DNA from: Escherichia coli
GTDB taxonomy: Bacteria > Pseudomonadota > Gammaproteobacteria > Enterobacterales > Enterobacteriaceae
Assembly (NCBI RefSeq): GCF_003018115.1
Contig: NZ_CP027457.1
Length of the DNA: 64,000 bases
Reading direction: 5' to 3' (one strand)
Shown: in pieces, positions 30,464 to 41,358 of the stretch
Position numbering within the stretch: position 1 is the stretch's first letter
Layout of the letters: every line of letters starts with the position of its first letter
Translations under genes and position numbers: made by a program
The notes under the pieces: model-generated
The model's input: the letters and a program-made list of their open reading frames with translations, nothing else
Told to the model about the DNA's origin: nothing
Database searches by the model: none

Positions 30464-30495
30464 AAAAAAACCAACCTTTACGGTTGGTTTTTTTT
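30464..30495. terminator. Bidirectional hairpin terminator (yejO end; probably the original proL terminator displaced by the island)
   Basis: AAAAAAA-CCAACC-tttac-GGTTGG-TTTTTTTT. On the minus strand it directly follows the partial tRNA 3'-end repeat. Confidence 0.7.
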
Positions 30496-30517
30496 GGGAT
30501 TTTTGGTCGCACGAGAG
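30496..30517. repeat. Island-distal att repeat (partial copy of tRNA-Pro 3' end)
   Basis: GGGATTTTTGGTCGCACGAGAG versus GGCGATTTGGTCGGCACGAGAG at 41337-41358. Confidence 0.75.
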
Positions 30518-30578
30518 TAGTTTAATTGAACGTGTAACTTAATGATTTAAAAGAATGAGTCTGATTCAACTTTTAAGC

Positions 30579-30602
30579 CGTATAACCAAACGTATAGCTA
30601 AA
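30579..30602. promoter_or_regulatory. Tandem 12-mers CGTATAACCAAA CGTATAGCTAAA (candidate integrase arm-type sites, distal arm)
   Basis: Same motif and orientation as CGTATAACTAAA CGTATAACTAAA at 41189-41212 next to int. Confidence 0.55.
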
Positions 30603-30772
30603 TTTATTTGCTGAAAAAATGTACAATTTAGAGTCAGATTTTCCCAGATGTTTAATTTATAAAACGAAGCTGGCGGCTGTTCTCTGATATGTGGATCCCC
30701 ATATCTGGAACCCTACCGGAATTTTTTTCCGGTTACCCTTTAATCAGGCTGGTGGGCTTTACCTGTTCGGTA

Positions 30773-30795
30773 GGTATGATCATTATGATCATACC
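30773..30795. repeat. Perfect 23-bp palindrome GGTATGATCAT-T-ATGATCATACC
   Basis: 11-bp arms read directly from the sequence. The nearby hairpin ACCGGAA-ttttt-TTCCGGT lies at 30715-30733. Confidence 0.9.
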
Positions 30796-30848
30796 TTTCG
30801 CCCCAATGGGAGGTAAAAGCGCCAACTGGACGGTTAAACCGTCTTTTT

Positions 30849-30883
30849 GTCACATCGTGTCACTGGTTGTCACTCTCCGTCAC
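30849..30883. repeat. Four GTCAC repeats with exact 10-bp phasing
   Basis: GTCACatcgt GTCACtggtt GTCACtctcc GTCAC, starting at 30849, 30859, 30869 and 30879. Preceded by hairpin GACGGTT-a-AACCGTC plus TTTTT. Confidence 0.9.
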
Positions 30884-30910
30884 GATGTCCGCTCGCCTGG
30901 CTGTAAATCA

Positions 30911-31139
30911 AACTACGAAATTTTCGTAGTTGTGAGTAAGCCCCAAAATATGGGGATTACTCTTACTACCCAAACTACGGGTAGTTTCCGTAGTTTCATA
31001 GTCGAGTTGCAGATCTGCAACTCCCCCACCAGCCAGCGCAATTTTGCGCTTTGCTTTAAGTTCAGCGAGTTACAGCGCCGACTTCCTCAAATTGAGGTTG
31101 CCGGAAATATCAACCAGTTACGAGGCTCAAAATTGAGCC
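30911..31139. repeat. Train of seven short palindromes/hairpins in non-coding DNA
   Basis: 30911-31 AACTACGAAAtTTTCGTAGTT; 30941-55 CCCCAaaataTGGGG; 30972-87 AAACTACggGTAGTTT (plus CGTAGTTT at 30989-96); 31004-23 GAGTTGCAGATCTGCAACTC (perfect 20-mer); 31035-50 AGCGCAAttTTGCGCT; 31085-97 CCTCAAaTTGAGG; 31124-39 GGCTCAAaaTTGAGCC. Confidence 0.9.
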
Positions 31140-31156
31140 GCCTTTAAATCAACACG

Positions 31157-31438
31157 TTACCGCCGTAACCGCTCCGGCTTCTTCCAGTTGTACGTAATTT
31201 TCTCTTTCTCCCTGTACATCTCTACACGGCGATTGTAGGCCAGCATTTCAAGAACGCGGATCCGTATGTCGCGCATATCAACGCCATTAAGTTCTATACC
31301 ATCACGGCGCATCACCTCCACCACTACACGCACATAATTATCTGCGGTCATGCTGTCCGGCTGCGTGGCCTGTTCGTCAACCTGCTGGCTGATTCCGGCG
31401 ACGCGGCGGATTAATCCCAGTATTTCGGCTTCTGTCAT
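31157..31438 (-). CDS. Hypothetical island protein (93 aa)
   Basis: ORF with ATG preceded by a G-rich SD-like stretch. Follows repeat copy 1. No recognisable motif. Confidence 0.5.
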   Translation of the reverse strand: MTEAEILGLIRRVAGISQQVDEQATQPDSMTADNYVRVVVEVMRRDGIELNGVDMRDIRIRVLEMLAYNRRVEMYREKEKITYNWKKPERLRR

Positions 31439-31475
31439 TGTGCCCCCATCGCGCTGGTGAAGAAAACAAGCTCAG

Positions 31476-31690
31476 ATTTTTTGTAAAGAATCTGTCACGC
31501 TAAAAGATGTCGAACAAAAAACAACCTTCTTCATCATCTTTTTTACATCAAAGCAATTAAAAACAATCACTTACGAACATGATGATGATGACGATAAAAT
31601 CAAAAAAATGCGTTTTTTTCCGCGCCGCCCGCCCCGTGTTCAGGCCCACCCCACCAGGAGGACCCGCAAAAAAGGCGGCTGGTGCCGCCT
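31476..31690 (-). repeat. Copy 1 of ~215-bp island repeat (terminator + G-rich cos-like core + A/T tracts)
   Basis: Aligns block by block with 34015-34228. Shared blocks: TTTTTGTAAA, GAACAAAAAACAACC, ATAAAATCAAAAAAATGCG, TTTTTCCGCGCC, CCGCCCCGTG, CAGGCCC..CCCCACCAGGAG and the terminator hairpin. Confidence 0.85.
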
Positions 31691-31695
31691 TGTTG

Positions 31696-33585
31696 TCATA
31701 GTGAATCGGTACCGCCTGATTTGACCATACCGCGATAATCCAGAGCTGCCACACCTGCATCAATACGGACTTTCCAGGCCACGCCGTCAACGATAAAACC
31801 TTCCTGCTGTTCAAGGTAAGGCTCGTCATTGCCATCAAGATAAGCCACCTCGATTGTGTCCGTTCCCTGTGCGGAAAGCATGTACCATTGTTTTTCGCTG
31901 ATATCATCAAGGCGGGGATCGACGATGATATCAAGTAGCTTGTGGTACGGGTTAAAGATCCCGCTGTTTTTATCAGCCCCGAAAGGTGCGGTTGAGTTAA
32001 TCATCTGCAACGCGCGATCTTCCAGTGCTGCCGGAACTAAAAGGAATTTAGGCGCAATATTCAGCACTTCGCCATTTTTGTCCTTCTGTGTGCGCATCAG
32101 GTGACGTGCTGCACTAAGTCCCGGTGTTGTCAGTCCTGCTTCAATCAGGTTGCTGTGTTTTTTGTCAAACAGCGTTATTCCGTCAGAAAGTTTTACGTTG
32201 CCTGTAAGCACCAGATTAACCAGATTTCCCACCGTTCTTGATGCTGCACGGCCCATAGCCATTGGCACCGTTGATAACTGATCAAGGTCATCATTGATTA
32301 TCGCCTGGCGGGTAATGCTGAAAATATTCCCGTAAGTAGCCAGCGCGATGGGTTCACCGCGATCGCTGGTGGTGATGTATTTATATTCTGCCCCTTCCGG
32401 CACTTTGTTTAACGTTGAGAAGCCATTCATACCAACGCGGCGGGCTTCCCGGAAGTTTGAAAGGGAACCTTTTTTCGTCCACTGGCGGAATGTTTCGCCG
32501 CTGTGCTCCCAGCCTGCAAGCACTGATTTTTCAGCGCCACCAGCAAGGATATCGGTAAAATCGCTGCTGCTGTGGGTGAATGCCGCGTTTACTATCTGCG
32601 AGCGTGTGCCGTAGCTGCCCGTGCTTATACCACGATGGGTTAATGATGCCTGTGCCATATCGAAAAGGCTCATCATGGCGTAAGGATTACCGCGTTCGGC
32701 CCGTTCGTGACCAAGACGCGCATTAAGCCCCTGACGCATGGCATCGCCGGTTATATTGCCGTTATCCGTGTACGCGTAGTAAAGATTTGCGGGGGTGGTT
32801 TTGTTTGTTGGCGTTGATTCTTTACCCATAGCGAGTAAAAGGCGTTCGCGTGCATTCTCAACGCTACATTCTGAATCCGCAAGACAACTTATAGCCAGGT
32901 CGTTATATCTTCCGTTGAAGGTGCCAAACAATTCACGGATTCCGTTAAGTCGTTCCTGTTCGCCACTGCCAGTTTTCTGGCTGATCATGCTTTTAATTTT
33001 TTCCGGCATATTTGAAAAATCTCCGATTCGTTTTGATTCAATTCGGGCCATTGCTGTAATCGCGGGTATAACCTCATCTGCGAAGCCGTTAGCCTTACAC
33101 TCATTGCCATCCATCCAGGTTTCCGCCTCCATCATTGAGGTGATCTCCTGTTTGCTCCTGCCCGTTCTTCCGGCATAGGTTTCTGCCATCGTGTCGCCCA
33201 GCTTGTCCATCAGATCAGCAAAGCGGCGAACGTCGCCCGACACTCCGGCAGTAACACCACGGGGGGCATGTATCATCATCATCGCGTTTTCAGGCATAAC
33301 GATGTGATCTCCACACATGGCAATAAACGACGCCATAGAAGCCGCCATGCCTTCAATGTGTACGATTTTTTTTGCCGGATGATTTTTCAGGGCGTTATAG
33401 ATAGCCAGCCCTTCAAAGATGTCGCCACCAGGTGAATGAATGCTCAGATGGATTTCAGACGCATTACCACACGCGTTGATCTCGTCAGTAAGTGCCGATG
33501 CTTTTACACCGTACCCGCCGATCTCGTCATAAATGCGCACATAGACAACATCTGCCATAGCCTTAATGGAAAACCATGTTTTCAT
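31696..33585 (-). CDS. ClpP-family prohead protease fused to phage major capsid protein (629 aa)
   Basis: N-terminus: IHSPGGDIFEGLAIYNAL..GMAASMASFIAMCGD..MMMIHAPRG (ClpP/S14-like Ser and His motifs). The C-terminal ~330 aa resembles HK97-fold/Mu gpT-like capsid proteins (..ALATYGNIFSITRQAIINDDL..WYMLSAQGTDTIEVAYLDG..). Assignment is from memory of the family, not from a search. Confidence 0.75.
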   Translation of the reverse strand: MKTWFSIKAMADVVYVRIYDEIGGYGVKASALTDEINACGNASEIHLSIHSPGGDIFEGLAIYNALKNHPAKKIVHIEGMAASMASFIAMCGDHIVMPENAMMMIHAPRGVTAGVSGDVRRFADLMDKLGDTMAETYAGRTGRSKQEITSMMEAETWMDGNECKANGFADEVIPAITAMARIESKRIGDFSNMPEKIKSMISQKTGSGEQERLNGIRELFGTFNGRYNDLAISCLADSECSVENARERLLLAMGKESTPTNKTTPANLYYAYTDNGNITGDAMRQGLNARLGHERAERGNPYAMMSLFDMAQASLTHRGISTGSYGTRSQIVNAAFTHSSSDFTDILAGGAEKSVLAGWEHSGETFRQWTKKGSLSNFREARRVGMNGFSTLNKVPEGAEYKYITTSDRGEPIALATYGNIFSITRQAIINDDLDQLSTVPMAMGRAASRTVGNLVNLVLTGNVKLSDGITLFDKKHSNLIEAGLTTPGLSAARHLMRTQKDKNGEVLNIAPKFLLVPAALEDRALQMINSTAPFGADKNSGIFNPYHKLLDIIVDPRLDDISEKQWYMLSAQGTDTIEVAYLDGNDEPYLEQQEGFIVDGVAWKVRIDAGVAALDYRGMVKSGGTDSL

Positions 33586-33776
33586 AGCCAGGCTCCTAAC
33601 GTTGCCTGGTACCAGTATTCAACCGCGCTGCGTGTGATTTGTCCTTTCGTGGGCACTGGCATACCCGGGTGATTATCTTTGATGAACTGCTGATAGCGTT
33701 CGATCTTCTCCATAGTTCCGGCGTCTATGTGCACAGTGGCACTTTTATCCGGCTTTCTGGTGTTGTTCTCTGGCAT
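33582..33776 (-). CDS. Small protein (64 aa from second Met), possibly ribbon-helix-helix-like, translationally coupled to the capsid fusion
   Basis: GGAGG lies 7 nt before the ATG at 33776 (MPENNTRK..). The stop overlaps the capsid-fusion start (ATGA). The pattern TVHIDAGTMEKIERY..TKGQITRSAVEYWY suggests a beta-alpha-alpha fold. Confidence 0.55.
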   Translation of the reverse strand: MPENNTRKPDKSATVHIDAGTMEKIERYQQFIKDNHPGMPVPTKGQITRSAVEYWYQATLGAWL

Positions 33777-33970
33777 AAATCCGCCTCCGTTTTGATTAAC
33801 GGGCATCATTATTGATCGATAAAAGTAATAGATAAATCATTTTCTACCTGAAAATCAGATTATGTTTTTTCTGATTATCCTCAGAGAGGCAAAGCCATTG
33901 ACGCATTTTTGCTATTGAAGCAATATTAAGACTCGTCATCCTGGCGATAAAAACTCCTTTGTCGTGTAAA

Positions 33971-34008
33971 AGCGCCTCCGGTAACAGCAATCGGGGGCGC
34001 TTTTTTTT
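33971..34008. terminator. Strong hairpin flanked by A8/T8 in the leader of the capsid operon (bidirectional terminator-like)
   Basis: GCGCCTCCG-11 nt-CGGGGGCGC (9 bp, one G.T) followed by TTTTTTTT on the plus strand. On the minus strand the same stem is followed by TTTTAC. Confidence 0.6.
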
Positions 34009-34014
34009 GCGCCT

Positions 34015-34228
34015 GTTTTTTGTAAATGTTTTCGGGAACGTTCCAGTGATGAACAAAAAACAACCCGATTCGACACTAAAAATTTTTATTCCTCAATATA
34101 TCAATAGCTTATAGTGGTGGTGATGGTGCCATAAAAATCAAAAAATGCGCCTTTTTCCGCGCCCCTCCGCCCCGTGGACAGGCCCCCCCCACCAGGAGTA
34201 CCTACAAAAAAGCCGGATTGCTCCGGCT
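34015..34228 (-). repeat. Copy 2 of ~215-bp island repeat
   Basis: See copy 1. The terminator AGCCGGA-ttgc-TCCGGCT plus a T-run (minus strand) lies immediately after the PerC-like gene. Confidence 0.85.
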
Positions 34229-34234
34229 GTGTGA

Positions 34235-34507
34235 TTAGCTGTCTTGGTAATTACACCATATTTCATCGCTTACACCATCTATACCCATTTCAGCATAAGT
34301 GCGATCTACTGCCTTTCTCAGGTCTCCGAAGTTATCCGGCGGCTCCGGTGGCCTCTGTGCCTTCCTGGAACATTCCAGCCGTCGCATCGTAACCTGATGC
34401 CGTTCCTTGTCTGTCTCCACCAGCTGCATGACTTCACCCCATCGCGCCGCCGCCCTCCGGTAAAATCCTTTCGCCTCGAGTTCCTCCGCTATGCGGTCAT
34501 GTATCAT
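34235..34507 (-). CDS. PerC-family-like transcriptional regulator (90 aa)
   Basis: The N-terminal pattern IAEELEAKGFYRRAAARWGEVM resembles the AE.LE..G..RRAA.RW signature I recall for PerC/Pch proteins. Confidence 0.5.
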   Translation of the reverse strand: MIHDRIAEELEAKGFYRRAAARWGEVMQLVETDKERHQVTMRRLECSRKAQRPPEPPDNFGDLRKAVDRTYAEMGIDGVSDEIWCNYQDS

Positions 34508-34772
34508 CGCCTGACTCTCCGGTTTTTACGTTGATGGTTGTTACCTGTTCCGCTTCGGCAATCTCCCGTTCTGTCAACGTGGCAAAGTTTGCCGCCGCTG
34601 TGGTCATGAATGCGCTTATCAGTTCGGGATGCTCCTTCGCGTATCCTTCCCCCGCGTGGCGGTCTATTACCCTGATTGCCACCTTTAAGGCGTGCTCTGT
34701 CATGTCTAACGCTTTATATTTCGGCTCTGTTCTGTCTCTGCGCATTTTGGTTATCTCCTCACTCATGCTCAC
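34497..34772 (-). CDS. Hypothetical island protein (91 aa, GTG start)
   Basis: ORF overlaps the downstream gene by 11 nt. Part of the tightly packed operon. Confidence 0.5.
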   Translation of the reverse strand: MSMSEEITKMRRDRTEPKYKALDMTEHALKVAIRVIDRHAGEGYAKEHPELISAFMTTAAANFATLTEREIAEAEQVTTINVKTGESGDDT

Positions 34773-34958
34773 TTTTACACCTCACTTTTTAAAGCGTCTC
34801 GCTTCGTCTCACTTGATATTTTTTGATGCTTTATGTGTGTGTTTCATAAGGATTTTTTTACTCCTCACTTTTGAGCATGTATACAGGTGAGAAAGTGAGT
34901 AATCGTGTTAATATTTTGTAAAAACCTCACCATTACTCACTTTTGCTACTCACTTTTT
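34758..34958. repeat. Iteron cluster (CTCACTTTT family) flanking an AT-rich core: candidate island replication origin
   Basis: CTCACT(T) copies at 34758, 34768, 34781, 34808, 34864, 34936 and 34949; CTCACC at 34926; inverted GGTGAG/AAAGTGAG at 34886-34899. The AT-rich stretch is 34815-34862. Lies immediately 3' of the replication ATPase gene. Confidence 0.6.
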
Positions 34959-36366
34959 ACAGTGGTCCTACATCATCACCATCAATGTAAATCACGGCGT
35001 CTTTTTCCAGTTTGGCTAACCATCGCCGCATATTTTTCACGTCATACCCAAGCCGTTTCATGTCATCACGTAACAGCGGGATCGTGCACTTGTCGCCGTT
35101 CTGTGTGCGTGAACGGATGCACCCCCATAGTGCGGTATGGTTTTCCGTCTTGTTGCCTGCCTCCTCGATGCGTTCCAGTTCAACGGGAGGGCGCGGCTTA
35201 TCCACCACCACCAGCGACGTGATTAACTCCCCGTCAGCGTCGGTAAACAGCTCCACCACGCGTAAGTCATATGCGGCTTCTTTGAGTTCCTCCGCGTCCT
35301 TCATTTTGGTGCATGAGATAACCAGCGCTTCGCTTCCTGCGTCCTCCCTGCGTATCCGGTATTCAGCATCCAGTGATGCACGAAATGCACTGGAACCGCG
35401 CGCGCCTTTCGTCTCATCCTTGCCGGAATGGTGAACCACCAGCACCGTGGCCCCTGTGCGTCGTTTCAGTTCGTCACAACCACGGATAAACGCCCCCATA
35501 TCACGGGAATCATTTTCATCATTCCCACCAAAGCAACGCGCCAGCGTATCCAGAATAATCATGCGTACAGGTTTACCCGTTTCCCGCTCCACCTGACGGG
35601 CAGCGATAACCATTTCATCAACATCAAGCGGGACCGCCGGAAAGATGGGACGGTTTACCAGATACAGATTTTTCACCTGCTCACCGTGCACAACCTCCCA
35701 GGCTTTTACACGACGCGGAACGCCGATACCGCCTTCACCAACCACATAGAGAACAGCGCCATGCGCCACCCTGCGGCCTCCCCACTGGCGGCCCGTGGAA
35801 ACGTGACACGCCCACGATCCGGCAAGGAATGATTTATAGGAACCGCTCGCCCCGTATATGCTGCAAAGCGACGATGCCGGAATAATCCCCTTTACCACGT
35901 AATCAAGCTGTGTGTCGTATCCGGTAGATCCAACGCTCATCGGTAGCGTGGTTTTTCGCTGGGGGATTTTTTTCATGACCAGGCTTTCCCCGCGTTCCCA
36001 TGCCTCCCTAAGCCGTGGAAGCTGGTCGCTCCATTCCTCCAGCAATTCGAAATTTTCAGAAAGTAGCCGCGCCTCCTGGACTCCGGCGATCGCCAGTTTC
36101 GTGGCGATGGTTAACAGCTGCGGCTCTTCAATATTTCCGGCGCGTATCACCGTCGCCCTGTATCGCCCATCATCAACAATCTGGAGGTTATCCAGTTTGC
36201 TTAACTGATAACGCCCCAGATAAACGGGAGGGACTGGATCGCCTGCTTTTTTGGCCTGTGCAATGATGTAATGCTCTGCGAATGAGTGAGCATCAATACC
36301 CGCAAAAATAATCGCATCGGTGTATTTATCTTTCGGTAATCGTTTTACGTTCGGTGCCAGTTTCAT
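34957..36366 (-). CDS. Replication ATPase, RepA/AAA_25 (RecA-like helicase) family, 469 aa
   Basis: Walker A GASGSYKS, Walker B RMIILDT and VVHHSGKD motif, typical of RepA-like helicases of plasmids and satellites. N-terminal ~140 aa unassigned. No zinc-finger or Toprim primase motifs seen. Confidence 0.7.
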   Translation of the reverse strand: MKLAPNVKRLPKDKYTDAIIFAGIDAHSFAEHYIIAQAKKAGDPVPPVYLGRYQLSKLDNLQIVDDGRYRATVIRAGNIEEPQLLTIATKLAIAGVQEARLLSENFELLEEWSDQLPRLREAWERGESLVMKKIPQRKTTLPMSVGSTGYDTQLDYVVKGIIPASSLCSIYGASGSYKSFLAGSWACHVSTGRQWGGRRVAHGAVLYVVGEGGIGVPRRVKAWEVVHGEQVKNLYLVNRPIFPAVPLDVDEMVIAARQVERETGKPVRMIILDTLARCFGGNDENDSRDMGAFIRGCDELKRRTGATVLVVHHSGKDETKGARGSSAFRASLDAEYRIRREDAGSEALVISCTKMKDAEELKEAAYDLRVVELFTDADGELITSLVVVDKPRPPVELERIEEAGNKTENHTALWGCIRSRTQNGDKCTIPLLRDDMKRLGYDVKNMRRWLAKLEKDAVIYIDGDDVGPL

Positions 36367-36662
36367 TTTTTACCCCTGAATCCGTTAATCATGGTTTTCA
36401 GCTTCTGGATGTTTGCCCGTGCCCTGGCGTTGCTGGTGGGCACGTTATGCGGCGCGGTCTGTACCAGAGAAAAATCACGCCGGAACTGATAAACAGGCAT
36501 CACGCAATCATATTCGTAACCTTCACGGCGGTAAGTTACGCACCGTCCCGCCACGCCCTTAATCATTACCGTGCCGCCGTACTGGTCGCGGTAAATATCA
36601 CCGCGCGTAAATTTAGGGTGAGTGTTGCCACTGGCAGTTAAGCCAGAATATTTAAGTTTCAT
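36363..36662 (-). CDS. Small protein, DUF4222-like (99 aa)
   Basis: The pattern YRDQYGGTVMIKGVAGRCVTYRREGYEYDCVMP resembles remembered DUF4222 proteins found upstream of satellite replication genes. ATGA overlap with the ATPase gene. Confidence 0.45.
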   Translation of the reverse strand: MKLKYSGLTASGNTHPKFTRGDIYRDQYGGTVMIKGVAGRCVTYRREGYEYDCVMPVYQFRRDFSLVQTAPHNVPTSNARARANIQKLKTMINGFRGKK

Positions 36663-36667
36663 TATTT

Positions 36668-36901
36668 TTATTCTCCGGTGTGCTGTTCGTTATATCTGTC
36701 GTGCAATGTCTCTATTTCCTGCAACTCATTTATTACAGGCTCAAGAAGCGTTATTAATGCCGTGGCAATTCTTGATTTTTGTTTGTCGCGTTCATTGTCG
36801 CCAAGTGTTTCAAGCCATATGCGCAATATTTCCATCATATTTTCACTGTGAGAAAGTGCAAGAAATACGCGATCTGTTGTTTCGTGGTAAATATCACGCA
36901 T
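36668..36901 (-). CDS. Hypothetical small helical protein (77 aa)
   Basis: ORF packed 1 nt after the upstream stop. Confidence 0.5.
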   Translation of the reverse strand: MRDIYHETTDRVFLALSHSENMMEILRIWLETLGDNERDKQKSRIATALITLLEPVINELQEIETLHDRYNEQHTGE

Positions 36902-36902
36902 A

Positions 36903-37124
36903 TTAATTACCGTCCGTTGTTTTTCTTAAAACAGCTTCTGTCACGAAATCGGCATAGTTAGCGGCAATATCAAGAATATTTAGCCCTGTATCTCTGTGCT
37001 CATCAGTGCAAAGAAAGAAAAAAGCCACCCGCATAATTTCAGATATTGACGAAAGCGCATCAGCCGCATCATCAGGAACGCCGGAAAATTCTTGTTTCAG
37101 GGAATAAAAACGATCATCACGCAT
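36903..37124 (-). CDS. Hypothetical small protein (73 aa from MRDDRFY)
   Basis: The ATG at 37124 overlaps the upstream stop (ATGCGTGA) and is preceded by a GGGGGGG SD-like run. Confidence 0.5.
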   Translation of the reverse strand: MRDDRFYSLKQEFSGVPDDAADALSSISEIMRVAFFFLCTDEHRDTGLNILDIAANYADFVTEAVLRKTTDGN

Positions 37125-37356
37125 AACCCCCCCCATTTTCACAATCAGTAATCAGGATGGTTTTAGCCTCATTCAGTGCCATATCAGCACTAAATTGCAT
37201 AACAGCCAGTGAGTGAGGAACGAAAGCCCCGGTATATTCTGTTTCGCTGGTGGCGTGCTTATGTGCCCTGTCCGCGATAACAGAAATATCAATCAGCGCG
37301 TGCATCAGCGTTTTGATGGCTTCGGCGGCTGCGTCCGGTGTGGTTTTATTGTGCAT
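37117..37356 (-). CDS. Hypothetical small protein (79 aa)
   Basis: ORF overlaps the upstream ORF by 11 nt. Confidence 0.5.
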   Translation of the reverse strand: MHNKTTPDAAAEAIKTLMHALIDISVIADRAHKHATSETEYTGAFVPHSLAVMQFSADMALNEAKTILITDCENGGGYA

Positions 37357-37675
37357 AAAGCATCCCCTGAATATTCGTGTTAATCATTCCGGCACGTTTT
37401 GTGATTTCCTGTAATGATTCCCTTGTGGCGACAATTGCTTCATCTGGTAAGTGGTAATTACACACCACGCGACCTTTATCCACATTGACCAGTAGCTGCC
37501 CTGTGAATTTCTCACGAAACTGAATGCGGTTAAGGTCAGTAAGTGACAGATTAATAATGGCGCACCTCCTGACGAATACGGGCGGCAAATACAGCAACAC
37601 AACCGGACGGGCAACGGTTACGCGCTTCGCGTTCCGTCCAGGCGGTGACGTGGATGATTTGAGATTCTCCGGCAC
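37346..37675 (-). CDS. Hypothetical protein, start uncertain (109 aa from GTG 37675; ~71 aa if initiated at ATT 37558 after AGGAGG)
   Basis: Long open frame overlapping the icd-like ORF out of frame. A strong AGGAGG (37570-37565) has no canonical start codon at proper spacing, only ATT. Confidence 0.4.
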   Translation of the reverse strand: MPENLKSSTSPPGRNAKRVTVARPVVLLYLPPVFVRRCAIINLSLTDLNRIQFREKFTGQLLVNVDKGRVVCNYHLPDEAIVATRESLQEITKRAGMINTNIQGMLYAQ

Positions 37676-37748
37676 TCAGGGCCAGAAAACGCCACACAAA
37701 GGCAGTTTGTGTGTGTACAAGGTGTGGTATATGATTTACGGCAACCAT
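37551..37748 (-). CDS. Small protein (65 aa), tentatively Icd-like (host cell division inhibitor family)
   Basis: GAGGAG SD 5 nt before the ATG. First gene of the leftward operon. The pattern FVWRFLALS..IIHVTAWTEREARNR..VFAARIRQEV resembles my recollection of Icd-like proteins of P4-like elements. Unverified. Confidence 0.5.
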   Translation of the reverse strand: MVAVNHIPHLVHTQTAFVWRFLALSAGESQIIHVTAWTEREARNRCPSGCVAVFAARIRQEVRHY

Positions 37749-37812
37749 AACGGCTCCTCGTTTACGTTGTTGGTTAGAAGCCCCGTTACTGCTCCTACAG
37801 TGCGGGGTTTCG
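37742..37812 (+). ncRNA. Candidate small RNA A (cis-antisense to the RBS/start of the icd-like gene)
   Basis: Promoter-like TTGTGT (37707-12) -17 bp- TATGAT (37730-35). Hairpin GCCCCG-17 nt-CGGGG (37780-37807) followed by TTTCGTCGTTTC. A homologous unit lies at 38453-38565. Confidence 0.35.
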
Positions 37813-37837
37813 TCGTTTCAACACCTTGCCTAAATAA

Positions 37838-37891
37838 GGTGTTGAACACCAATTTAAATCGAGGTGTTAAACACGTCAAGTGTTGAACACT
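37838..37891. promoter_or_regulatory. Three palindromic operators (GGTGTTGAACACC family) overlapping divergent promoter-like hexamers
   Basis: 37838-50 GGTGTTgAACACC (perfect); 37863-75 GGTGTTaAACACG; 37879-91 AGTGTTgAACACT (perfect). Minus strand: TTGACG (37879-74) -17- TAAATT (37856-51). Plus strand: TTGAAC (37883-88) -17- CATACT. Confidence 0.6.
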
Positions 37892-37940
37892 TATTTTTTT
37901 TCCTGCATACTGCATTTGTTTTTTATGAGGGGTGCTCAAC

Positions 37941-38120
37941 ATGGCGACAAAAGCAGTAAACGCAAAATCACAAACAGTTGCGGCAAGGGTTCCACATGAA
38001 GTTATGAACAATGTTGAGGCGGTAAAAATGCCCGGCGAAAGTACAGGGCAGTTTGTTACAGCTGCATTAAAGCGGGAAGTTGAATACCGCCAGCGTCGCA
38101 AGGCCAAAGAATCAGAATAA
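37941..38120 (+). CDS. Ribbon-helix-helix DNA-binding protein 1 (59 aa)
   Basis: ATG preceded by GAGGGG. TVAARVPHEVMNNVEAV..STGQFVTAALKREV fits a beta-strand/helix/helix (CopG/Arc/MetJ) layout. Confidence 0.65.
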   Translation: MATKAVNAKSQTVAARVPHEVMNNVEAVKMPGESTGQFVTAALKREVEYRQRRKAKESE

Positions 38121-38177
38121 TCACTATCAGCGCCGTGGTGTGAGGTACTACGGCGCATTGCTTTACAGGGCAGTATC

Positions 38178-38405
38178 ATGACCAACAACACACTATCACC
38201 AATACAAGACACGCAAACGCAAGATGATGAAATCATCCGGCAAAGGCAGTCAGAAGCCTGCGCCAGACTTGAGGAAGAACTAACCAGAACAAAAATACCA
38301 CCACCAGCGCCGCGCTTAGTGCCACCAGAAAAATTTGCCCTTGAAGATTTTGTCGATAAATACCCACGGCGGCTTAAATCCGGCAAAAACCGACCGCCTG
38401 GCTGA
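38178..38405 (+). CDS. Small protein (75 aa), paralog of 38856..39059
   Basis: MTNN.. start. Shares the motif F.L(E/D)(D/E)F(V/L).KY.R with the second copy. Confidence 0.5.
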   Translation: MTNNTLSPIQDTQTQDDEIIRQRQSEACARLEEELTRTKIPPPAPRLVPPEKFALEDFVDKYPRRLKSGKNRPPG

Positions 38406-38487
38406 GTGCACAAAACCGAACTATGAAACGGATTATTCCGTTTCCGGGGCGTTTGTGTGTGTATAAAGAGTAAGCTATGCTCTTTTA

Positions 38488-38565
38488 TAGCCATAATCGT
38501 TACCTCAATTAATGGTTTGGTTAGACGCCCCGTATGTGAGCCACCACTGCGGGGCGTTGTTTTTT
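38488..38565 (+). ncRNA. Candidate small RNA B (homolog of RNA A with a strong intrinsic terminator)
   Basis: TTGTGT (38453-58) -17 bp- TATGCT (38476-81). TTGGTTAGA, then stem ACGCCCCG (38525-32) / CGGGGCGT (38550-57), then TTGTTTTTTG. Confidence 0.4.
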
Positions 38566-38583
38566 GTATAACGGTAAGTACAA

Positions 38584-38624
38584 TGGTAATTACCATGTAA
38601 CTATAGTAATTAAGGGTAATTACC
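38584..38624. promoter_or_regulatory. Palindromic operators GGTAATTACC (x2, plus a degenerate middle copy) at the RHH-2 start
   Basis: TGGTAATTACCA at 38584-95, AGTAATTAAG at 38605-14, GGTAATTACC at 38615-24, abutting the ATG at 38625. Confidence 0.55.
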
Positions 38625-38798
38625 ATGTCAACACCATTGGAAAAGCGATCGCCTCCATACCAAATGCGGCTACCAGAAGAATTCAGAGCACAACTTGAAG
38701 AGGCAGCGAAAGCAGACGGTGACACTTCTTTAGCCACCTGGATCAAGCGAGTACTCCGAAAAGAATTACAGCAACGCGGTATTGAACCCAAAGGATAA
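38625..38798 (+). CDS. Ribbon-helix-helix (Arc-like) DNA-binding protein 2 (57 aa; below the ORF-track cutoff)
   Basis: Manual translation gives MSTPLEKRSPPYQMRLPEEFRAQLEEAAKADGDTSLATWIKRVLRKELQQRGIEPKG. The MRLPEE..L..AA...G.S....I pattern is typical of Arc/MetJ-type repressors. AAGGG SD lies 8 nt upstream. Confidence 0.6.
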   Translation: MSTPLEKRSPPYQMRLPEEFRAQLEEAAKADGDTSLATWIKRVLRKELQQRGIEPKG

Positions 38799-38855
38799 AA
38801 AACATCAGCGCCGTGGCGTGAGGAACTCCGGCGCATTGCTTTACAGGTACACACA

Positions 38856-39059
38856 ATGACCAACAAAGAATCAACCAATACACCATCGCAAAAAACGAAC
38901 AGAGAGCACGAAAATATGGCGTTCGAGCATGAATCAGAAAGATTCGCACCATGCGCTTTTGTCCTTGATGAGTTTCTAAAAAAATATTCACGTTCTGAAC
39001 GGATGAAAATGGCAGCACAATACGGCCCCAACAAGCAAGATAATTGCCCACCAGCCTGA
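38856..39059 (+). CDS. Small protein (67 aa), paralog of 38178..38405
   Basis: MTNK.. start with FVLDEFLKKYSRSERMK motif. Preceded by the conserved 44-nt hairpin block. Confidence 0.5.
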   Translation: MTNKESTNTPSQKTNREHENMAFEHESERFAPCAFVLDEFLKKYSRSERMKMAAQYGPNKQDNCPPA

Positions 39060-39127
39060 TCGCGGTTATCATGCCCGGGCTTATGATTGTTGACACATAC
39101 GGCGCAGCGGGTTAATTGTTCAGAAAG

Positions 39128-39156
39128 GTGGCTCCATTTCGGGGCCGCTTTTTTTA
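39128..39156 (+). terminator. Rho-independent terminator ending the rightward RHH operon
   Basis: GGCTCC-atttc-GGGGCC stem, then GC and TTTTTTT. Confidence 0.6.
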
Positions 39157-39180
39157 TGTTCATCATTTGCCCTATATATG

Positions 39181-39387
39181 TTAAGCGGTCGTTCCGCGCG
39201 CTTCTTGTTCGCGTTCTTTCATCCATGCGATTACGTCTTCCTCATACCATCCGCGACGGCGCAAACCGACACGAAAACCCTGCGGGAATTCTCCGGCGTT
39301 GATCATGCTTTGCAGCGTGCTGTCTGCCTTAATGTGGATAAGTTTTTTTACTTCCTGGCGAAAGATGACTTTTTTGATTGCTTCCAT
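39181..39387 (-). CDS. AlpA-family phage regulatory protein / excisionase-like (68 aa)
   Basis: The pattern ..LIHIKADSTLQSMINAGEFPQGFRVGLRRRGWYEEDVIAWM.. matches the MerR-like wHTH AlpA/Xis family signature (R.v.W...dV..W). Confidence 0.8.
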   Translation of the reverse strand: MEAIKKVIFRQEVKKLIHIKADSTLQSMINAGEFPQGFRVGLRRRGWYEEDVIAWMKEREQEARGTTA

Positions 39388-39406
39388 CGTGATTTACCTC
39401 ATTAAT

Positions 39407-39488
39407 CCGGTGTATTCCGGTGAGAAATACGGTAAATCATCGGATGCAGGGAAAAACAGTACTCACCGTTTTTAAACGGTATACACCG
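39407..39488. promoter_or_regulatory. Nested inverted repeat across the alpA promoter region
   Basis: CCGGTGTAT (39407-15) and CCGGTGAG (39417-24) pair with CTCACCG (39462-68) and ATACACCG (39481-88). Confidence 0.55.
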
Positions 39489-39520
39489 TTTTTTATATTG
39501 ATGATTTGAAAGGGATTTAT

Positions 39521-39546
39521 AAAAAAAGCGGCATTTCTGCCGCTTT
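39521..39546 (-). terminator. Rho-independent terminator after orf83
   Basis: Minus strand: GCGGCA-gaaa-TGCCGC followed by TTTTTTT. Confidence 0.7.
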
Positions 39547-39554
39547 CAGGATTG

Positions 39555-39806
39555 TTACCGCCATTTTTTTGGCCTGCCTCCGGTCTTCATGGATGCCGGA
39601 CGTACAACCTTATCAATACTTACAGCCAGATTTCTGGAAGCCCCACGGGATACCAGGAAATCTACTACCTGTTTTTTTGATGGGGCCGTCGTTCTGTCCT
39701 CCGGATCGTAGGTTGACCAAAATTCATGCTGAACCATCAGGGCCAGTTGCAGCCCGTCGCAATTGCATCTGAAATTTGTTTGCATCTTAACAGTTTCATT
39801 TTTCAA
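39555..39806 (-). CDS. Hypothetical protein (83 aa) downstream of int, basic C-terminus (GGRPKKWR)
   Basis: ORF between int and its terminator. No confident family assignment. Confidence 0.45.
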   Translation of the reverse strand: MKNETVKMQTNFRCNCDGLQLALMVQHEFWSTYDPEDRTTAPSKKQVVDFLVSRGASRNLAVSIDKVVRPASMKTGGRPKKWR

Positions 39807-39883
39807 GGCCTCGTCGTTAAATGTGATGCAATTATACGACGGTTTTAAATGGTTTTCGTAGTTTTTACTGGTTTTCTGTACAG

Positions 39884-41125
39884 CTAAACGGCTCGGATAC
39901 CCCTTTTACCACTGGCGAGGGTTACGCCCGTCGCCGCAGCCTCGACAAATTCGCCCCACCAGCGCATAAGCACGATGCGTTTTTCTATGTAGTTGCTCCG
40001 GTTGTATGCCCGTCTGACTTCGTTGGTGTCGACGTGGGCAAGTGCGGCCTCTATTACGTCCGGCTCAAAGCCTTCTTCGTTCGCTGCTGTGCTGAATATG
40101 GCGCGTAATCCATGAGACACCAGCACGCCAGCGAATCCCATGCGTCGTAATGCTGCGTTAGCGGTCTGGCTGTTCATCGGCTGCTGTGGGTCTTTCAGAC
40201 TCGGGAAAACATAATCGCGGTGGTGGCTGATTGGTTTCATAGCCTCCAGCACTGCCATAGCCTGGTCACAAAGCGGGATAACGTGGTCGCGGCGCATCTT
40301 CATGCGTCCGGCGGGTATGGTCCAGCGTTGCGCTTCCATGTCGATTTCTTCCCAGCGTGCCGACGATGCTTCAACGGGACGGGTTACGGTCAGTAACTGC
40401 CATTCAATCAGTAATCTGGTCTGCCGTTCTGTTGCCGATACTGATAAAGCCTGCATAAGCTCCGGCAGCTGTTCGGGGCGGATTGTTGGCATATGTTTTT
40501 TTACAGGGGAGGGGAACGCCTTACGCACATTCATAGCCGGATTGGCATCAATCATCCCACTATTGGCGGCGTAATCCATTACCTCATTTATACGCTGTAA
40601 AACTCGCTTGAGCGTTTCCAGGTTGCCACGTTCCTTGATGGGGGTAAGCACCTCAACGAACCTGCGAGCGGTCAGGGTGTCTATTGGCGTGTTGCCGATG
40701 AACGGGAATACATATTTTTCCAGCGATCGCCAGATGTCTTTAATCGTATTGGGGGCCAGATTCTGGCTGATTTTCACCTGGTACCATGCTGTTGCCACAT
40801 TTTCGAACGTGTTCCCTTGTCTTCGGGCCTCTGTCTCTCTTTTTTGCCTCTCGTGGTCCTGCGGGTCAGTTCCGGCACGAATTAACGCCCTGTACTCGCT
40901 ACGGCGTTTTCTGGCATCAGCCAGGGAAACATCATCAAGCGATCCAAAACTCAGCAATATTCTTTTTTTGTCCGATGGTCGGTAGTAGGAAAATCTCCAG
41001 AGTTTTGATCCGGACGGTTTGATCAGGAGAAAAAGCCCTCCGCCGTCCTGTAGGGTGTATTCCTTTTCTGCTGGTCTGGCTGCTTTGATCTGTACTGTGG
41101 TTAATGGGGGTGTTTTTCTCGCCAT
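39884..41125 (-). CDS. Tyrosine integrase, P4-type (413 aa)
   Basis: N-terminal DUF4102-like arm-binding region (LTTVQIKAARPAEKEYTLQDGGGLFLLIKPSGSKLWRF). C-terminal catalytic motifs (HGLRAIFST..AHVDTNEVRRAYNRSNY). Adjacent to the tRNA. Confidence 0.92.
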   Translation of the reverse strand: MARKTPPLTTVQIKAARPAEKEYTLQDGGGLFLLIKPSGSKLWRFSYYRPSDKKRILLSFGSLDDVSLADARKRRSEYRALIRAGTDPQDHERQKRETEARRQGNTFENVATAWYQVKISQNLAPNTIKDIWRSLEKYVFPFIGNTPIDTLTARRFVEVLTPIKERGNLETLKRVLQRINEVMDYAANSGMIDANPAMNVRKAFPSPVKKHMPTIRPEQLPELMQALSVSATERQTRLLIEWQLLTVTRPVEASSARWEEIDMEAQRWTIPAGRMKMRRDHVIPLCDQAMAVLEAMKPISHHRDYVFPSLKDPQQPMNSQTANAALRRMGFAGVLVSHGLRAIFSTAANEEGFEPDVIEAALAHVDTNEVRRAYNRSNYIEKRIVLMRWWGEFVEAAATGVTLASGKRGIRAV

Positions 41126-41156
41126 ATGCTTATGATTCCAAACGAAAAAACAGGGT

Positions 41157-41212
41157 TTTAGTTATACGGCTTTAGTTATACGTCAGCCCGTATAACTAAA
41201 CGTATAACTAAA
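41157..41212. promoter_or_regulatory. Four 12-mers (2 direct TTTAGTTATACG + 2 inverted CGTATAACTAAA) upstream of int
   Basis: Copies at 41157-68, 41171-82, 41189-200 and 41201-12. Same motif as 30579-30602 at the other island end. Confidence 0.6.
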
Positions 41213-41215
41213 AAA

Positions 41216-41336
41216 TCCGGCTGATAGCTTATAAATCCGGTGATGTTCGGTGACTAAAAACCATAAAAAAACCCGCCAATCAAGTAATTGGCGGGCTATC
41301 CCTGTCTTATTCGATGATTTCCGGTGGTATCCGGTG
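41216..41336. promoter_or_regulatory. Cluster of TCCGGTG-type motifs between int and the att core
   Basis: TCCGGCTG at 41216, TCCGGTG at 41236, TTCGGTG at 41246, TCCGGTG at 41320 and 41330. The same heptamer occurs twice in the alpA promoter (39406-39424). Confidence 0.5.
41264..41295 (-). terminator. Rho-independent terminator downstream of proL (supplied by island DNA)
   Basis: Minus strand: CCCGCCAAT-loop-ATTGGCGGG followed by TTTTTTT. Confidence 0.7.
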
Positions 41337-41358
41337 GGCGATTTGGTCGGCACGAGAG
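41337..41358. repeat. tRNA-proximal att repeat
   Basis: GGCGATTTGGTCGGCACGAGAG. Pairs with 30496-30517. Confidence 0.75.

Follow-up and report, generated by a model that had tools for sequence, protein, structure and literature searches.

A train of seven palindromes at 30911-31139 (229 bp) of the window, a 64-kb stretch of Escherichia coli DNA numbered from its first letter, lies in the non-coding tail of a phage satellite, immediately downstream of the satellite gene orf93. On sequence evidence, we tentatively favor the reading that the train is an array of dyads and binding sites for integration host factor (IHF), co-opted from a cassette of phage rha genes and forming a DNA-level nucleoprotein element in the satellite tail; we consider this quite possible, if short of probable. 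All seven palindromes were found where a first-pass annotation of this DNA had placed them. Counted as inverted repeats whose arms pair perfectly over 6 nt or more and whose loops do not exceed 7 nt, they compare to a mean of 0.36 and a maximum of 3 in 1,000 dinucleotide-preserving shuffles, and the concern raised in that annotation, that shuffled controls might show the same density, was not borne out. The seven repeats cover 118 of the 229 bases, and the train has the highest palindrome density of any 229-bp stretch in the window. Folded as a single strand, it gave z values of about -8.3 and -8.6 on the two strands relative to shuffles. The palindromes and the IHF boxes accompanying three of them are as follows.

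30911-30931, no strand: palindrome 1, AACTACGAAAtTTTCGTAGTT, 10+1+10
30934-30962, no strand: palindrome 2, imperfect hairpin with 12-nt arms, one mismatch and a 5-nt loop; starts the core block 30934-31028
30965-30996, no strand: palindrome 3, two overlapping dyads at 30972-30996 (9+7+9) and 30965-30985, built on AAACTACGG / CCGTAGTTT
31004-31023, no strand: palindrome 4, perfect 20-mer GAGTTGCAGATCTGCAACTC with a central GATC
31035-31050, + strand: palindrome 5, AGCGCAAttTTGCGCT (dyad AGCGCAATTTTGCGCT), dyad of array unit 1
31062-31074, + strand: IHF-type box of unit 1, degenerate, TTCAGCGAGTTAC, identified by direct reading and by alignment with rha
31085-31097, + strand: palindrome 6, CCTCAAaTTGAGG, dyad of array unit 2
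31108-31120, + strand: IHF box of unit 2, perfect consensus TATCAACCAGTTA (pattern WATCAANNNNTTR)
31124-31139, + strand: palindrome 7, GGCTCAAaaTTGAGCC, dyad of unit 3, starting 39 bp after the start of palindrome 6
31147-31159, + strand: IHF box of unit 3, perfect consensus AATCAACACGTTA, overlapping the orf93 stop codon

The orf93-proximal part of the tail is composed of tandem units of ~45 to 50 bp, each with a short dyad, about 10 nt and an IHF-consensus box WATCAANNNNTTR, in this order on the + strand of the window. Three units are present in the window, joining the dyads at 31035-31050, 31085-31097, and 31124-31139 to the boxes at 31062-31074, 31108-31120, and 31147-31159, respectively, and the arrangement of a box over the stop codon at the orf93 end is kept in related islands as gcggTAAC. 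Related tails were collected from 80 IMG/VR loci with orf93 homologs, which yielded 38 distinct tails. Among them, the perfect IHF consensus was found 36 times on the strand antisense to orf93 and 6 times on the other, compared to an expectation of ~0.36 per strand by our own calculation. The box was followed by a stem of 5 bp or more in 34 of 45 units and in 5 of 45 shuffled ones. The stems of the unit dyads differ in sequence with the pairing kept (GCGCAA/TTGCGC, CCTCAA/TTGAGG, CAGCC/GGCTG, and CCCCCA/TGGGGG), and the spacers of the tail boxes (CCAG, GCAA, and CGGG) differ from those of rha alleles (TGAC and TGAG) with the consensus positions retained. We regard this anatomy of the array as established.

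The relation of the train to phage regulator genes was apparent from a comparison with phage records at a permissive threshold, in which nearly all matches fell in Rha, KilA-N, Ant, or Roi loci of enterobacterial phages; a neighboring tail segment used as a control gave only noise from unrelated phages. When 80 rha loci from IMG/VR were compared with the tails by BLAST, 283 of 294 matches centered in a single 50-nt bin, 150 to 200 nt into rha, and 285 were antisense to orf93. The best tail-to-rha matches were 29/31, 25/26, 21/21, 35/41, and 18/18, with different units matching different alleles, and identity between unit and rha ranged from 83 to 100% over 20 to 41 nt. What is shared with rha is only a cassette of ~40 nt, namely, a palindrome, ~10 to 20 nt, and then WATCAANNNNTTR, and its homology to the tail units is firm. 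Individual palindromes of the train have the following counterparts in phages.

AGCGCAATTTTGCGCT: identical palindrome encoding ERNFAL inside rha of the Shiga toxin 2 (Stx2) phage P13374
GAGTTGCAGATCTGCAACTC: 20-mer, 10+0+10 in the tail; a KilA-N gene of Stx2 phages has it as 9+4+9, where it encodes SELQICNS
AACTACGAAAaTTTCGTAGTT: palindrome 1, encoding NYENFVV in the Ant gene of Klebsiella phage pKp383, and also found upstream of rha in Hafnia phage Meifeng and of roi in Salmonella phage Vi II-E1

The reverse complement of palindrome 7 is the RLNFEP-type rha palindrome GGCTCAATTTTGAGCC. Salmonella phage Vi II-E1 also carries a complete tail-type unit (GTTATTGATTTCCTCGGAAACCCCAAAAATGGG), as well as the AACTACGAAAtTTTCGTAGTT dyad, in non-coding DNA upstream of roi, beside the annotated repeats of the roi 5' end.

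Within rha, the cassette lays its palindrome over x(N/H)Fxx codons and its IHF site over KINxL codons. Compensatory versions of the palindrome (AGCGCAATTTTGCGCT, AGCGTAATTTTACGCT, GGCTCAATTTTGAGCC, GGCCCATTTTTGGGCC, and AGCGCATTTTTGCGCT) occur in genuine rha genes. Across 28 distinct rha sequences, the codons of the IHF consensus were invariant (Ile ATC, 28/28; Leu TTA, 28/28), as was the Phe codon of the loop (TTT, 28/28), with synonymous variation in the adjacent Gly, Asp, Lys, and Glu codons and in another Ile codon. The cassette was located at about nt 735 to 800 of each rha locus, with the perfect IHF consensus codons ATC, AAT, and TTA unvarying. Judged by these codons, the hairpin and IHF consensus inside rha are a cis element embedded in coding sequence, and the constraint on it is established at the sequence level. 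According to the literature, IHF regulates rha, and Rha blocks phage growth in IHF-deficient hosts (PMC4936722, citing Mozola & Friedman 1985 and Henthorn & Friedman 1995).

We propose that the units arose from a single cis-regulatory cassette lying ~150 to 200 nt inside phage rha genes, with which they continue to exchange sequence. A block of larger dyads at 30911-31023 follows the units, and other dyads correspond to kilA-N and ant palindromes. IHF would bind and bend each box, and the dyads next to the boxes would be bound by a dimeric partner, possibly the Rha-, KilA-, or Ant-type proteins of the helper, or be extruded as hairpins. The array would then act as an architectural block or barrier of fixed orientation where the late operon of the satellite ends, next to the cos site, and would put to new use the device that lets IHF silence rha. 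We infer the binding and bending by IHF, the partner of the dyads, and the barrier or architectural role from the sequence features described here.

The first-pass annotation left the choice between operator-type sites and a highly structured RNA, and the evidence now leans, short of proof, to DNA-level sites. Among 136 distinct tail hairpins, 56% have loops of 0 to 2 nt and are therefore palindromic through the center, and stem mismatches of the G.T and A.C types are balanced (42 and 44, respectively), showing no strand bias. An RNA hairpin does not need a palindromic center. Together with the pattern seen among the core variants described below, the palindromic centers and equal mismatches point to symmetry at the DNA level, or to a mutational process that generates palindromes, rather than to selection on RNA from one strand. 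The IHF consensus itself is a DNA feature.

An RNA role is nevertheless an alternative to be weighed, although we consider it unlikely. The orf93 transcript would run into the tail, and hairpins in its 3' untranslated region would be antisense to the cassette segment in several alleles of rha, kilA, and ant; they would silence these helper genes in trans or shield the mRNA from 3' exonucleases. All units are antisense to orf93, contiguous matches of 18 to 31 nt to rha alleles exist, the folding is very strong on both strands, and no intrinsic terminator was predicted on the - strand within the tail, the host terminator beyond it lying at 30464-30494 with none predicted between orf93 and there. 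There are also well-known precedents for antirepressor genes under antisense control, in that the P22 sar and P1 c4 RNAs silence such genes. REP elements stabilize mRNA against 3' exonucleases. Against this stand the missing asymmetry between G.U and A.C mismatches, the center-symmetric geometry of more than half of the hairpins, loops of 0 to 4 nt that are poor for kissing interactions, the conserved IHF consensus, and the lack of any Rfam match (E ≤ 1) between 30500 and 31200. For the single satellite-helper pair that was examined, the tail of a satellite embedded in its helper had no match to the ant gene of that helper, which counts against antisense silencing. A related idea, quite unlikely in our estimate, is that the tail serves as an "allele library" of helper rha, kilA, and ant segments used in trans, either by way of antisense RNA transcribed together with orf93 or by offering decoy or sensor sites to helper Rha-type proteins; if so, the turnover of units would track the helper phages met by the satellite.

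The conservation of the tail was analyzed in 5,426 complete E. coli genomes, in 933 of which parts of it were matched, the best-conserved piece being 30934-31048 with 90 to 95% identity. In every context examined, the matching sequence lay downstream of an orf93 homolog in a satellite, at several chromosomal sites and with varied capsid and terS modules. The 38 distinct tails are mosaics: blocks matching 31030-31112, 30934-31028, 30906-30938, 30830-30886, and 30686-30826 may be present or absent and differ in order and copy number. A palindrome of the window that is missing from a related tail is usually replaced by another in its place, and at least 12 dyad families were distinguished. The homologous islands thus carry these palindromes or equivalents, whereas the first-pass annotation had considered that they might lack them. 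A non-coding tail of 450 to 1,000 bp is retained in every subfamily, even with swapped cos and capsid modules, and also where the cos region is completely different. We regard its conservation as shown. The 95-bp core (30934-31028) is 92 to 96% identical where orf93 is only 85 to 89% identical at the nucleotide level. Among nine core variants, palindrome 4 was invariant and palindrome 3 had one pair broken in four, and the only changes affecting both sides of a dyad were replacements of hairpin HP1 by a different dyad on the same axis. The kilA homolog set, at 98 to 100% identity, was useless for covariation.

Chi sites accompany the dyads. The distinct tails contain 50 Chi per 23.9 kb, an enrichment of about 10 times, often 2 to 7 nt from a dyad. 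The Chi of the train is the following.

31026-31033, - strand: Chi, GCTGGTGG, orf93-sense, two bases away from palindrome 5; Chi and dyad are neighbors in this way in many related tails

The whole 10.8-kb island has 12 Chi (among them 30748 on the + strand and 31026 and 32537 on the - strand), ~5 times the E. coli average, with 8 on the gene-sense strand, and each predicted cos end has, at most ~0.9 kb away, a Chi oriented for recognition by RecBCD. Where related tails have Chi on both strands, the orf93-sense Chi is nearer to orf93 than the other-strand Chi at 9 of 9 loci (about 5 independent).

The enrichment of Chi is consistent with a recombination-prone region, and the tail may be recombination debris, an explanation that we find possible but somewhat unlikely. 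Patches of helper rha, kilA, and ant would have arrived by template switching or illegitimate recombination at hairpins, slippage would have amplified them, and quasi-palindrome correction would have kept or made the palindromes perfect, all without selection. The order, copy number, and presence of the modules vary freely, and their junctions fall at palindromes; tail palindromes are more perfect than genic ones (10+0+10 in the tail compared to 9+4+9 in kilA); and perfect centers with no strand asymmetry are expected from a mutational mechanism. Such debris is harder to reconcile with a core better conserved than the adjacent coding gene orf93, with a perfect IHF consensus enriched ~100 times on one strand and kept despite spacers unlike those of rha alleles, and with the persistence of the long tail in every subfamily through cos and capsid exchanges.

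Several observations weigh against a functional IHF-dyad array. The dyads are very diverse, comprising at least 12 families, which is more than one partner protein could recognize. Tandem duplication alone may explain why all units point the same way, and the core may be well conserved because it spread recently by recombination and not because it was selected. The picture of a conserved box with a variable N4 is partly circular, as the units were collected by a pattern that fixes those positions, the unbiased evidence being the count of consensus sites (36 and 6). Across the nine core variants, hairpins HP3 and HP4 are unvarying and speak neither for nor against covariation, some positions of HP2 stay unpaired throughout, and HP1 is swapped for another dyad. 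The missing match between the helper-embedded satellite and the ant gene of its own helper also belongs here.

The island that carries the array spans ~10.8 kb (30517-41344) between yejO and tRNA-Pro, with every gene on the - strand. It encodes an integrase, small regulators, a DUF4222 protein, a RepA-type helicase, PerC, a ClpP-protease/major-capsid fusion, and orf93, a gene make-up reported for satellites of the Gram-negative phage-inducible chromosomal island (PICI) type (PMC10111431, PMC6092414), and the island is a PICI-type phage satellite at tRNA-Pro. A degenerate copy of the tRNA-Pro 3' end at 30504-30517 (TGGTCG-CACGAGAG..., 30504-30535) is its far attachment site; a damaged tRNA fragment, such as that at 30504-30535, is of a kind reported for PICIs. 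The identical tail in another strain adjoins a fimbrial gene. Because the degenerate tRNA copy marks the left end and the same tail occurs at other loci, the sequence from 30520 to 31156 is assigned to the satellite. The tail and the gene preceding it are as follows.

30520-31156, no strand: whole non-coding tail (~640 bp), with the train and further dyads; a mosaic of modules common to related satellites
31157-31438, - strand: orf93, satellite-specific 93-aa protein, phrog_1561, which always precedes the tail

No RefSeq annotation was present inside the tail in any genome examined. The orf93 product had no sequence match in the PDB, and its AF2 model (pLDDT 66) was a three-helix protein without a fold match. 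No homologs were found in sequenced phages, and a cross-species search of species-representative genomes returned nothing. A role of orf93 as an Rpp- or TerS-like DNA binder was dropped, there being no sequence or fold similarity.

This end of the island is where cos sites of PICIs have been described (PMC10111431, PMC6739421). E. coli O157 FDAARGOS_293 has a lambdoid prophage whose terminase large-subunit gene A is interrupted by a related satellite, a helper-embedded arrangement already described (PMC10111431); the tail of this satellite borders directly on the gene fragment for the terminase C terminus. The region of this prophage from lysis to terS aligns over ~200 nt with 31440-31695 of the window, up to the terS start, at ~85 to 90% identity. 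On the - strand, 31440-31695 is the intergenic region between the capsid-fusion gene and orf93 and contains a G-rich, cosN-like GGGCGGGCGGCGCGG; by this alignment, it is probably the cos site of the satellite. With a helper-like cos region directly upstream, orf93 occupies the terS/rpp position.

The tail itself could then be viewed as a packaging site, that is, cos, pac, or an extension of cosB bound by terminase. It adjoins cos and orf93, and its IHF sites beside protein-binding repeats recall lambda cosB (PMC9026076). We consider this highly improbable, as the cos-like region lies beyond orf93 and aligns with the helper cos through the terS start, and as the tail persists with a completely different cos region. 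No similarity was found between the tail and the helper cos region, no lambda-type cosN (GGGCGGCGACCT-like) occurs in the tail, and no match of the tail to any phage cos was obtained. The train as a cos site was rejected, since the helper-like cos sits on the other side of orf93 and cosN is absent from the tail.

Another possibility is that the dyads are operators for proteins of the island itself, namely, its ribbon-helix-helix (RHH), AlpA, or orf83 proteins, and that AAACTACG ties them to the integrase end, as proposed in the first-pass annotation. The size and symmetry of the dyads are operator-like. We nevertheless judge it very unlikely: the dyads show too much diversity and are exchanged among islands irrespective of which regulatory genes these carry, the same dyads are present in phages without these island proteins, and at least 12 different families in related tails are too many for a few island regulators. 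Nothing links the dyads to the three proteins. Of the five copies of AAACTACG/CGTAGTTT that had been listed in the region, three are exact (30910 and 30972 on the + strand and 30989 on the - strand) and the other two match at 7 of 8 positions (30925-30932 and 30980-30987). The window holds five exact copies of AAACTACG, with 1.65 expected, and 3 of 100 shuffles reach five. Because the copy at 39857, which is not palindromic, lies within an unrelated direct repeat and is compatible with chance, the link to the integrase-proximal end is unsupported.

The region had been called non-coding, and this view holds. A decayed rha-like gene or pseudogene on the + strand, represented by the 152-aa open reading frame (ORF) at 30689-31147, is scarcely plausible. 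The + strand frame is open across the core in several islands, and tblastn with Rha residues 16 to 76 gave E = 3e-5 for the window tail in a small database; against the whole phage collection, the best E value was 0.9. The ORF had no Pfam or PHROG match, its start shifts between islands, and changes in the core are mostly non-synonymous. The units are spread over all three frames relative to one another, stop codons interrupt them, and only the ~40-nt cassette is common with rha.

The palindromes are also not simple terminators, in agreement with the first-pass annotation. Its statement that no palindrome is followed by a T-run is nearly right, the exception being 31035-31050, which on the + strand has a weak T-rich stretch after it and is the only terminator-like site within the train; another + strand site, at 30828-30844, lies outside it. 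That annotation contained neither the IHF boxes and tandem units nor the Chi sites, the cos region beyond orf93, and the relation to rha, kilA, and ant.

Palindromes continue to the left of 30911, at 30715-30733, 30772-30796 (12+1+12), and 30829-30843. The dyad at 30772-30796 is large and has two GATC sites (AGGTATGATCATtATGATCATACCT), and an imperfect dyad, CTGATATGTGGATCCCCATATCTG, is present at 30684-30707; both belong to families also found in related tails, many of which are GATC centered. Adjoining the train, GTCAC occurs four times with a pitch of 10 to 11 bp at 30849-30890 (tGTCACatcgtGTCACtggttGTCACtctccGTCAC), preceded by a hairpin with a T-run at 30828-30848 that resembles a + strand terminator. 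The GTCAC block is a mobile module, placed directly after orf93 in several related islands, and may be an iteron or an arm-type protein site. Compared with iteron origins, the train dyads are too heterogeneous, and other candidate non-coding regions are present in the island; a resemblance to lambda ori iterons (TCCCTCAAAACGAGGGA-like dyads) was dropped, the dyads being too unlike each other within a single array. Attachment-site arms were set aside, with IHF boxes 520 to 650 bp from the att core probably too distant for this role. The 20-mer GAGTTGCAGATCTGCAACTC was also found exactly central in far longer perfect palindromes on five contigs of metagenome-assembled genomes from unrelated phyla, which look like an assembly or adapter artifact irrelevant here. 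Elsewhere in the island, a 426-bp non-coding gap (33809-34235) with an IHF consensus at 34099-34111 and inverted repeats is a candidate replication origin or late promoter region. A 496-aa ORF at 37736-39226 on the - strand, without a Pfam or PHROG match and missing from the near-identical island of strain OkiPb01682, may be a cargo or defense gene.

The closest known system is the IHF-regulated internal region of phage rha (phi80 rha, P22 orf201, and Rha of Stx phages), which has the same ~40-nt cassette in the same order and in the same orientation on the rha-sense strand. In the tail, unlike in rha, the cassette is non-coding, occurs in 2 to 6 tandem copies without the remainder of rha, and runs antisense to the satellite operon. 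For the rha region, the literature says only that IHF regulates rha (PMC4936722).

The BIME-1, RIP, and RIB elements of E. coli consist of REP palindromes flanking an IHF site. Like the tail, they lie outside genes at the 3' ends of operons and are mosaics in which the number and order of short palindromic units and IHF sites vary. The tail elements, in contrast, have no REP consensus as judged by eye, are confined to one satellite family and not scattered around the chromosome, and are related to phage regulator genes. Lambda cosB, with its R sites and IHF site I1, and the cos/Rpp modules of PICIs also combine IHF sites with repeated elements resembling protein sites, adjacent to cos (PMC9026076, PMC6739421); the array, in contrast, lies beyond orf93 and not between cosN and the gene, and persists when cos is exchanged. 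With P22 sar and the P1/P7 c4 antisense RNAs, the tail shares richness in hairpins and an orientation antisense to antirepressor-type genes (rha, ant, and kilA), but it has no evident promoter, terminator, or discrete RNA and no Rfam C4 match, and its symmetry and mismatches favor DNA. A literature search with the palindrome sequences and for PICI palindromes found no paper with these sequences or such tails in the library searched. The tail family is a distinct sequence, confined to phage satellites and tied to rha; extragenic mosaics of palindromes and IHF sites as such are already known from BIME-1/RIP.

Discussion of the non-coding ends of Gram-negative PICIs has so far been limited to cos, and the tail is a second conserved cis element there. 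If functional, it would point to an unrecognized interplay between satellite, helper, and host through IHF and would give a handle on the long-standing problem of IHF control over rha. As debris, it would be a clear natural case of palindrome-driven transfer of patches between phages and satellites. Either way, the codon-level constraint in rha, comprising the IHF site and the hairpin, is directly testable.

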